DNA of 54,714 bases from Ancylonema sp. (taxonomy: Eukaryota). A program made the translations under genes and the position numbers. Shown piece after piece: positions 24,914 to 30,858 of this stretch (its first letter is position 1; each line of letters starts with the position of its first letter). Under the pieces are notes generated by a model. The model saw only the letters and a program-made list of their open reading frames with translations. It had not been told where the DNA came from and ran no database searches. Location of the stretch: the NCBI GenBank assembly GCA_050230475.1, contig JBFLGF010000209.1, positions 1 to 54,714 of the forward strand, read 5' to 3'.

Positions 24914-30858
<5,945 letters not shown>

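Follow-up and report, generated by a model that had tools for sequence, protein, structure and literature searches.

The question raised by this locus is what is meant by a single TAG triplet that interrupts an otherwise intact reading frame, in a GGCT-like gene, at a position where nearly all related proteins carry glutamate. The initial annotation of the 54,714-nucleotide stretch of DNA analysed here (the window) placed this triplet, at 28413..28415, in a short exon followed by further conserved exons, and implied that it might be recoded or read through. We reconstructed the gene, compared its conserved columns with those of its relatives, and examined how the disputed base is read in public sequencing contigs.

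The GGCT-like gene and its in-frame TAG

With exons joined by coordinates, the GGCT-like gene consists of eight coding exons on the + strand, encodes 257 residues and ends at a TGA. Its introns are all GT-AG, as are the long introns of the window in general, which is eukaryotic DNA. The features of the gene are as follows:

24847..24853, + strand: end of a candidate upstream exon, with an ATG, the donor AG/gtgagc and phase 1 to the acceptor at 25607, adding 3 residues
25610..25748, + strand: coding exon with the GFGSLL motif, the counterpart of YGSL in ChaC enzymes
26490..26620, + strand: coding exon 2, with 17 of 17 highly conserved columns kept and 287 relatives at E ≤ 0.001
27349..27426, + strand: coding exon directly 5' of the TAG exon, with 6 of 6 conserved columns kept
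28392..28436, + strand: TAG exon, 45 nt, phase 0/0, with the R-E-x-E-F motif
28413..28415, + strand: in-frame TAG, codon 124, at a conserved Glu position; GAG in public contigs
28633..28701, + strand: coding exon 3' of the TAG, in a variable loop region
29064..29115, + strand: coding exon 3' of the TAG, with 3 of 3 conserved columns kept
29891..29987, + strand: coding exon 3' of the TAG, with 9 of 9 conserved columns kept
30696..30858, + strand: last coding exon, with the RYGG-TGA end at 30858 and 25 of 26 conserved columns kept

The 45-nt exon has the boundaries proposed for it initially (acceptor ttggcag, donor GCA/gtaaga), the TAG is present in the assembly, and the four further conserved exons do lead to the RYGG-TGA end. 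The exon translates as VPAFIER*QEFRFLA and aligns gap-free with P0164, a land-plant homologue, 12 of the 15 residues matching. The numbering, by contrast, required revision, because the TAG had been put at about codon 205, whereas it is codon 124 counting from ATG 25610, or codon 127 when the upstream exon that ends at 24853 is included. The description of the TAG exon as exon 5 is correct only with that upstream exon included (exon 5 of 9); in the eight-exon model it is the fourth. A long upstream exon that would place the TAG near codon 205 was rejected, since the four candidates gave codon 127, 147, 154 or 165; two of the four had no start codon and one had an earlier stop. At the GGCT-like locus we found no open upstream frame matching the long N-terminal extension of the homologues, and there was no second in-frame TAG in the gene model.

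A HMMER search with exon 2 supplied the 287 relatives (the best 150 being listed), and a search with the Diphasiastrum homologue P0047 found 782 proteins at E ≤ 1e-10; among the 120 P0047 matches listed, the named proteins were from land plants and were mostly uncharacterised or BtrG-like. When only the last exon served as query, in a word-based search, none of 19 candidates proved to be a homologue. Homologues were aligned to the spliced model with an X in place of the stop. In the column of codon 124, Glu was present in 181 of the 189 homologues covering it, so that the TAG does fall, as had been proposed, on the near-invariant E of the R-E-x-E-F motif. Within the first 150 relatives, 70 covered residues 118-130, with Glu at 124 in 62, a gap in 4 and another residue in 4, the non-Glu rows being mostly poorly aligned; in a further homologue set Glu was found in 119 of 119. 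The 12 best homologues were 55-60% identical to the model over residues ~12-257. Columns conserved at ≥90% were kept at 73 of 75 positions, on both sides of the TAG, the exceptions being the TAG itself and Y235H; with only one stop and with introns that are all GT-AG, we rejected the idea of an old pseudogene.

Seven metagenome loci of relatives were fetched, none of them from the organism of the window (no blastn match to it). Three covered codon 124 and all three had GAG, although two of these (L003 and L004) were the same sequence. One of the seven, L007, looks like a chance match. From the homologue matches and the neighbouring genes described below, the source organism is likely to belong to the green-plant lineage, and is likely a streptophyte alga. 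The GGCT-like protein itself is unremarkable within its family, a known but little-studied GGCT-fold group that is widespread in green plants and for the most part lacks annotation; in the literature searched we found no study recognisably concerned with this plant subfamily, although one may still exist.

The base at 28413 in public contigs

Four public runs matched the window, of which X1, X2 and X4 came from one sample and X3 was a metagenome; none was recorded as RNA. The proportion of sampled words from 25500-30900 that were present was 0.90 for X1, 0.88 for X2 and 0.13 for X3. The tenth of words missing from X1 corresponds roughly to the 9.9% of 31-mers in this interval that touch long runs or short repeats. 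Contigs of the four runs were compared with the window over 27700-29200 only (1.5 kb).

The sole contig of X1 that covers the site (438 nt, depth 89.4) has G at 28413, i.e., a GAG codon for Glu, and the same is true of the sole covering contig of X2 (439 nt, depth 4.95). The position lies 151 nt in from the end of each contig, where the G is the single mismatch to the window in ~400 aligned nt. The contigs of X3 and X4 leave 28413 uncovered. In the other single-copy contigs listed (405, 212 and 331 nt in X1; 475, 324 and 261 nt in X2) there were 0 differences; as these contigs are nearly all intron, this suggests that the source of X1 and X2 was the same strain as that of the window, or one nearly isogenic with it. 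Reads showing GAG had been named initially as the result that would speak against recoding, and at the level of contigs GAG is what X1 and X2, both from one sample, contain.

Because the matching public contigs read GAG at 28413-28415, we conclude that the T at 28413 is most probably a single-base consensus error of the assembly. The GGCT-like gene, which is presumably expressed, would then use the standard code and probably specify a normal protein of full length, ~257 residues.

There is a smaller, although appreciable, chance that the T is real and represents a nonsense allele of recent origin, which would be confined to the subculture that was sequenced or else be one of a pair of alleles. 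The protein would then end with residue 123 and lack the conserved Glu, and nonsense-mediated decay of the message would be likely, with four introns downstream. In keeping with such an allele, the rest of the gene is free of decay, as expected if the change was recent, and 28413 lies outside any long single-base run, the context in which assembly errors cluster. The X1/X2 evidence also represents one sample and one source, possibly the same sample that lies behind the window, and consists of assembled contigs, in which minority alleles are masked and drop out; the depth in X1, 89.4 at the site versus 95.9 next door, cannot separate a mixed from a pure site. However, all other single-copy bases in the listed contigs of X1 and X2 are those of the window, the covering contigs cross 28413 with G at near-full depth, and the wide retention of the family in plants, evident from the P0047 search, also argues against such an allele.

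Two other observations were made in this comparison. Numerous contig mismatches at 28144-28249 stem from a high-copy repeat at 28100-28280, in the intron before the TAG exon, where the summed contig depth in X1 rises to ~2e5, compared with ~90 for single-copy sequence; similar letters occur at ~22770-22850, and the repeat is possibly a miniature inverted-repeat element. A contig of X3 extending over the exon at 29064-29115 (window 29010-29200, depth 3.2) has one intron difference, 29056 T→C, and a close strain may be present in that metagenome sample.

Genetic code, splicing and RNA editing

Neighbouring features of the window, some of which bear on the genetic code, are as follows:

3452-8901, + strand: GTE1-like (GTE1/IMB1-like) gene with bromodomain and BET domain, nine exons, 375 aa, intact, TAA end (Pfam BET, E 3.5e-13)
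9984-12190, - strand: candidate multi-exon gene for a Glu/Lys-rich coiled coil, last exon ~250 codons, no Pfam match above cut-off
24354-18632, - strand: syntaxin-6/SYP61-like gene, TGA end
~36950-43545, - strand: Copia-type LTR retrotransposon, with gag zinc knuckle, integrase, RT and RNase H pieces (by eye)
48408-49193, + strand: possible small two-exon gene with a signal-peptide-like start (by eye)

We take the gene at 3452-8901 to belong to the GTE1/IMB1 subfamily and that at 24354-18632 to be syntaxin-6/SYP61-like. An ATG at 3257 (3257-3451, + strand) opens the GTE1-like frame, the only stops being TAGs at codons 7 and 11; this segment is probably a 5' leader. The SYP61-like gene lacks an in-frame ATG (24307-24420, - strand), having AGG at 24357-24355 directly before SAQDPFY, where a Met would presumably be expected from plant SYP61-like sequences. 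The next ATG upstream, at 24420, has a TAG directly after it, which may be the other TAG counted in the initial annotation. The anomaly at this start may come from a further wrong base, or else from a short intron whose acceptor is a non-standard GAG. The SYP61-like gene lies head to head with the GGCT-like one (24350-25610), and as the two starts are ~0.5-1.2 kb apart, a promoter region may be shared. The pieces of the Copia-type element are broken by stops and frameshifts, and long similar repeats lie near 37015-37460 and 43085-43540.

Codon usage was counted, within the window, in four modelled frames, i.e., the GGCT-like, GTE1-like and SYP61-like genes and an open frame at 9984-10742 (- strand). 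Their 1,132 codons include 83 GAG and 31 GAA (114 for Glu), 50 CAA/CAG for Gln, one internal TAG and no internal TAA. The frame at 9984-10742 was picked as stop-free and so is no test of the code; the other three contain 78 Glu codons and one TAG. The four frames end in TAA once, TGA three times and TAG never, although four ends say little. The probability of finding at most one TAG in 115 would be 0.019 if TAG were used at 5% of Glu sites, and 7.5e-5 at 10%. No tRNA gene was found in the window, which also says little.

These counts bear on the possibility that the nucleus reads UAG as Glu, with UAA and UGA still acting as stops and with TAG and GAG as a synonymous polymorphism, or that this single TAG is read through as Glu. 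The TAG does fall on a near-invariant Glu, none of the four frames ends in TAG (again with n = 4), and a UAG=Glu assignment uncoupled from UAA exists in a ciliate, according to passages of PMC10553269. Nevertheless, both runs that cover the site (X1 and X2, from one sample) read G, there is one TAG as against 114 Glu and 50 Gln codons, a single base change separates GAG from TAG, and across genes only this one internal TAG was found at a conserved Glu column in the four frames of the window. We therefore regard recoding or readthrough, as implied initially, as highly improbable. The same judgement, that it is hardly credible, applies to the specific proposal of a green-lineage nucleus that reads UAG as Glu at low frequency, with TAG and GAG alleles at a putative catalytic residue. 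Were it real, UAG=Glu would make for a highly unusual code in the green lineage, and the evidence points against it.

It is also very doubtful that splicing bypasses the stop, either by use of a cryptic donor, AG/GTAGCA at 28412, or by skipping of the 45-nt exon. A GT is indeed present at 28412-28413 in the assembly, and 45 nt is a multiple of three, so that skipping would keep the frame. However, the GT needs the disputed T and is gone with G, and skipping would remove the most conserved motif (R-E-x-E-F). The cryptic donor had been put forward initially as a possible real donor; when translated, it shortens the exon to 20 nt, and the resulting frameshift leads to a stop ~40 codons on.

Least probable of all is that RNA editing repairs a genomic stop. 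Nothing observed at this locus favours it. Editing that corrects stops occurs in other lineages; the U-to-G change needed to restore Glu is not known among deamination-type edits. A-to-I editing would yield Trp, which occupies this column in none of the 189 homologues, and the G is already present in X1 and X2, runs that we guess to be DNA. A code in which both TAA and TAG specify Gln, as in ulvophycean algae, can be dismissed, since 181 of 189 homologues have Glu in this column, TAA serves as a terminal stop, and the four frames contain no internal TAA as against 50 CAA/CAG codons. Taken jointly, recoding, splicing and editing are an improbable explanation, and the in-frame TAG is probably not biological.

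Predicted fold, putative active site and comparison with known systems

An AlphaFold2 model was made of P0164, which is 59% identical to the protein of the window, using 105 aligned sequences (mean pLDDT 96.7). The model matched human GGCT (2i5t) with a Z score of 14.9 and an rmsd of 2.8 over 160 residues, upholding the fold that had been proposed initially. Further matches were to YkqA (Z 12.9), ChaC2 (Z 10.6) and yeast ChaC (Z 10.4), while Foldseek gave 3cry at E 2.4e-8; there were 13 PDB matches at E ≤ 0.001, and the 12 listed were all GGCT-fold proteins. At the level of sequence, the Pfam families for ChaC, GGACT and AIG2 (PF04752, PF06094 and PF13772) matched none of 11 homologues and none of 6 exons at E ≤ 1, no NCBIfam family matched any of 5 homologues, and searching the PDB by sequence profile gave no match, so that the link to GGCT comes from fold comparison only. 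ESM Atlas neighbours at 0.93-0.94, which we treat only as a lead, have PF06094 in 26-38% of members and include clusters automatically named gamma-glutamylcyclotransferase. Judging from the model, the family has a clear GGCT/BtrG fold. The P0164 model also matched Paulinella chromatophore transit peptide part 2 at middling scores (9i09, Z 7.6; 9i08, Z 6.0).

According to a passage of PMC7022552, GGCT-fold enzymes rely on a YGS loop together with a single Glu as acid/base, which is E98 in GGCT and E82 in GGACT, while in CHAC1, as given in a passage of PMC12756093, E115 lies 77 residues after the Tyr of YGSL38. In the protein of the window GFGSLLS occupies residues 40-46; the corresponding G27-S33 of P0164 is nearly invariant in the 105 rows and follows a model strand, E22-27. 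With FGSL starting at 41, the Glu at 124 would be 83 residues on, as compared with 77 in CHAC1. In the P0164 model E111 (codon 124) comes directly after a predicted helix, 101-110; E113 (codon 126) is equally conserved, and the fold matches give no residue pairs. The initial proposal that the residue at codon 124 is the active-site Glu is plausible, with Glu126 as a second candidate, and the model suggests an enzyme of the gamma-glutamyl cyclotransferase type. The GFGS loop would bind the gamma-glutamyl group, and Glu124 (or Glu126) would serve as the general acid/base. With a clear fold and two candidate catalytic Glu residues, an enzyme assay of this plant and algal family should be straightforward.

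Turning to known nuclear codes, passages of PMC10553269 describe UAG as Glu and UAA as Lys in Oligohymenophorea sp. PL0344, where 56 of 63 UAG codons at conserved sites, in 46 genes, mark Glu and there are ten tRNAs with CUA anticodons. The signature used in that work is the one seen here, a TAG within the frame where Glu is conserved; unlike PL0344, however, the window has one such TAG, and it is contradicted by the public contigs. One wrong base at a conserved Glu can thus look just like a reassigned stop codon, and any other isolated in-frame stop of the assembly should be checked against reads before it is called recoding. In ulvophycean green algae, according to a passage of PMC2984419, both TAA and TAG encode Gln; in the window, by contrast, TAA ends the GTE1-like gene and the TAG column is Glu.

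Among protein families, the fold resembles that of human GGCT/C7orf24 (2i5t, 3cry), ChaC2 (6k95), yeast ChaC (5hwk) and B. subtilis YkqA (2qik), although identity to human GGCT, ChaC2, yeast ChaC and YkqA is only 11-19% and the family has ~70 extra residues. The closest resemblance in motifs and in the RYGG end is to uncharacterised green-plant proteins named as BtrG-like or for butirosin biosynthesis (for example P0047 from Diphasiastrum, P0182 from Selaginella and P0235 from Artemisia). Many homologues in this group extend further at the N terminus, with total lengths of 300-355 aa, unlike the gene model of the window; once codon 124 is read as Glu, the protein is a plain member of the green-plant BtrG-like group.
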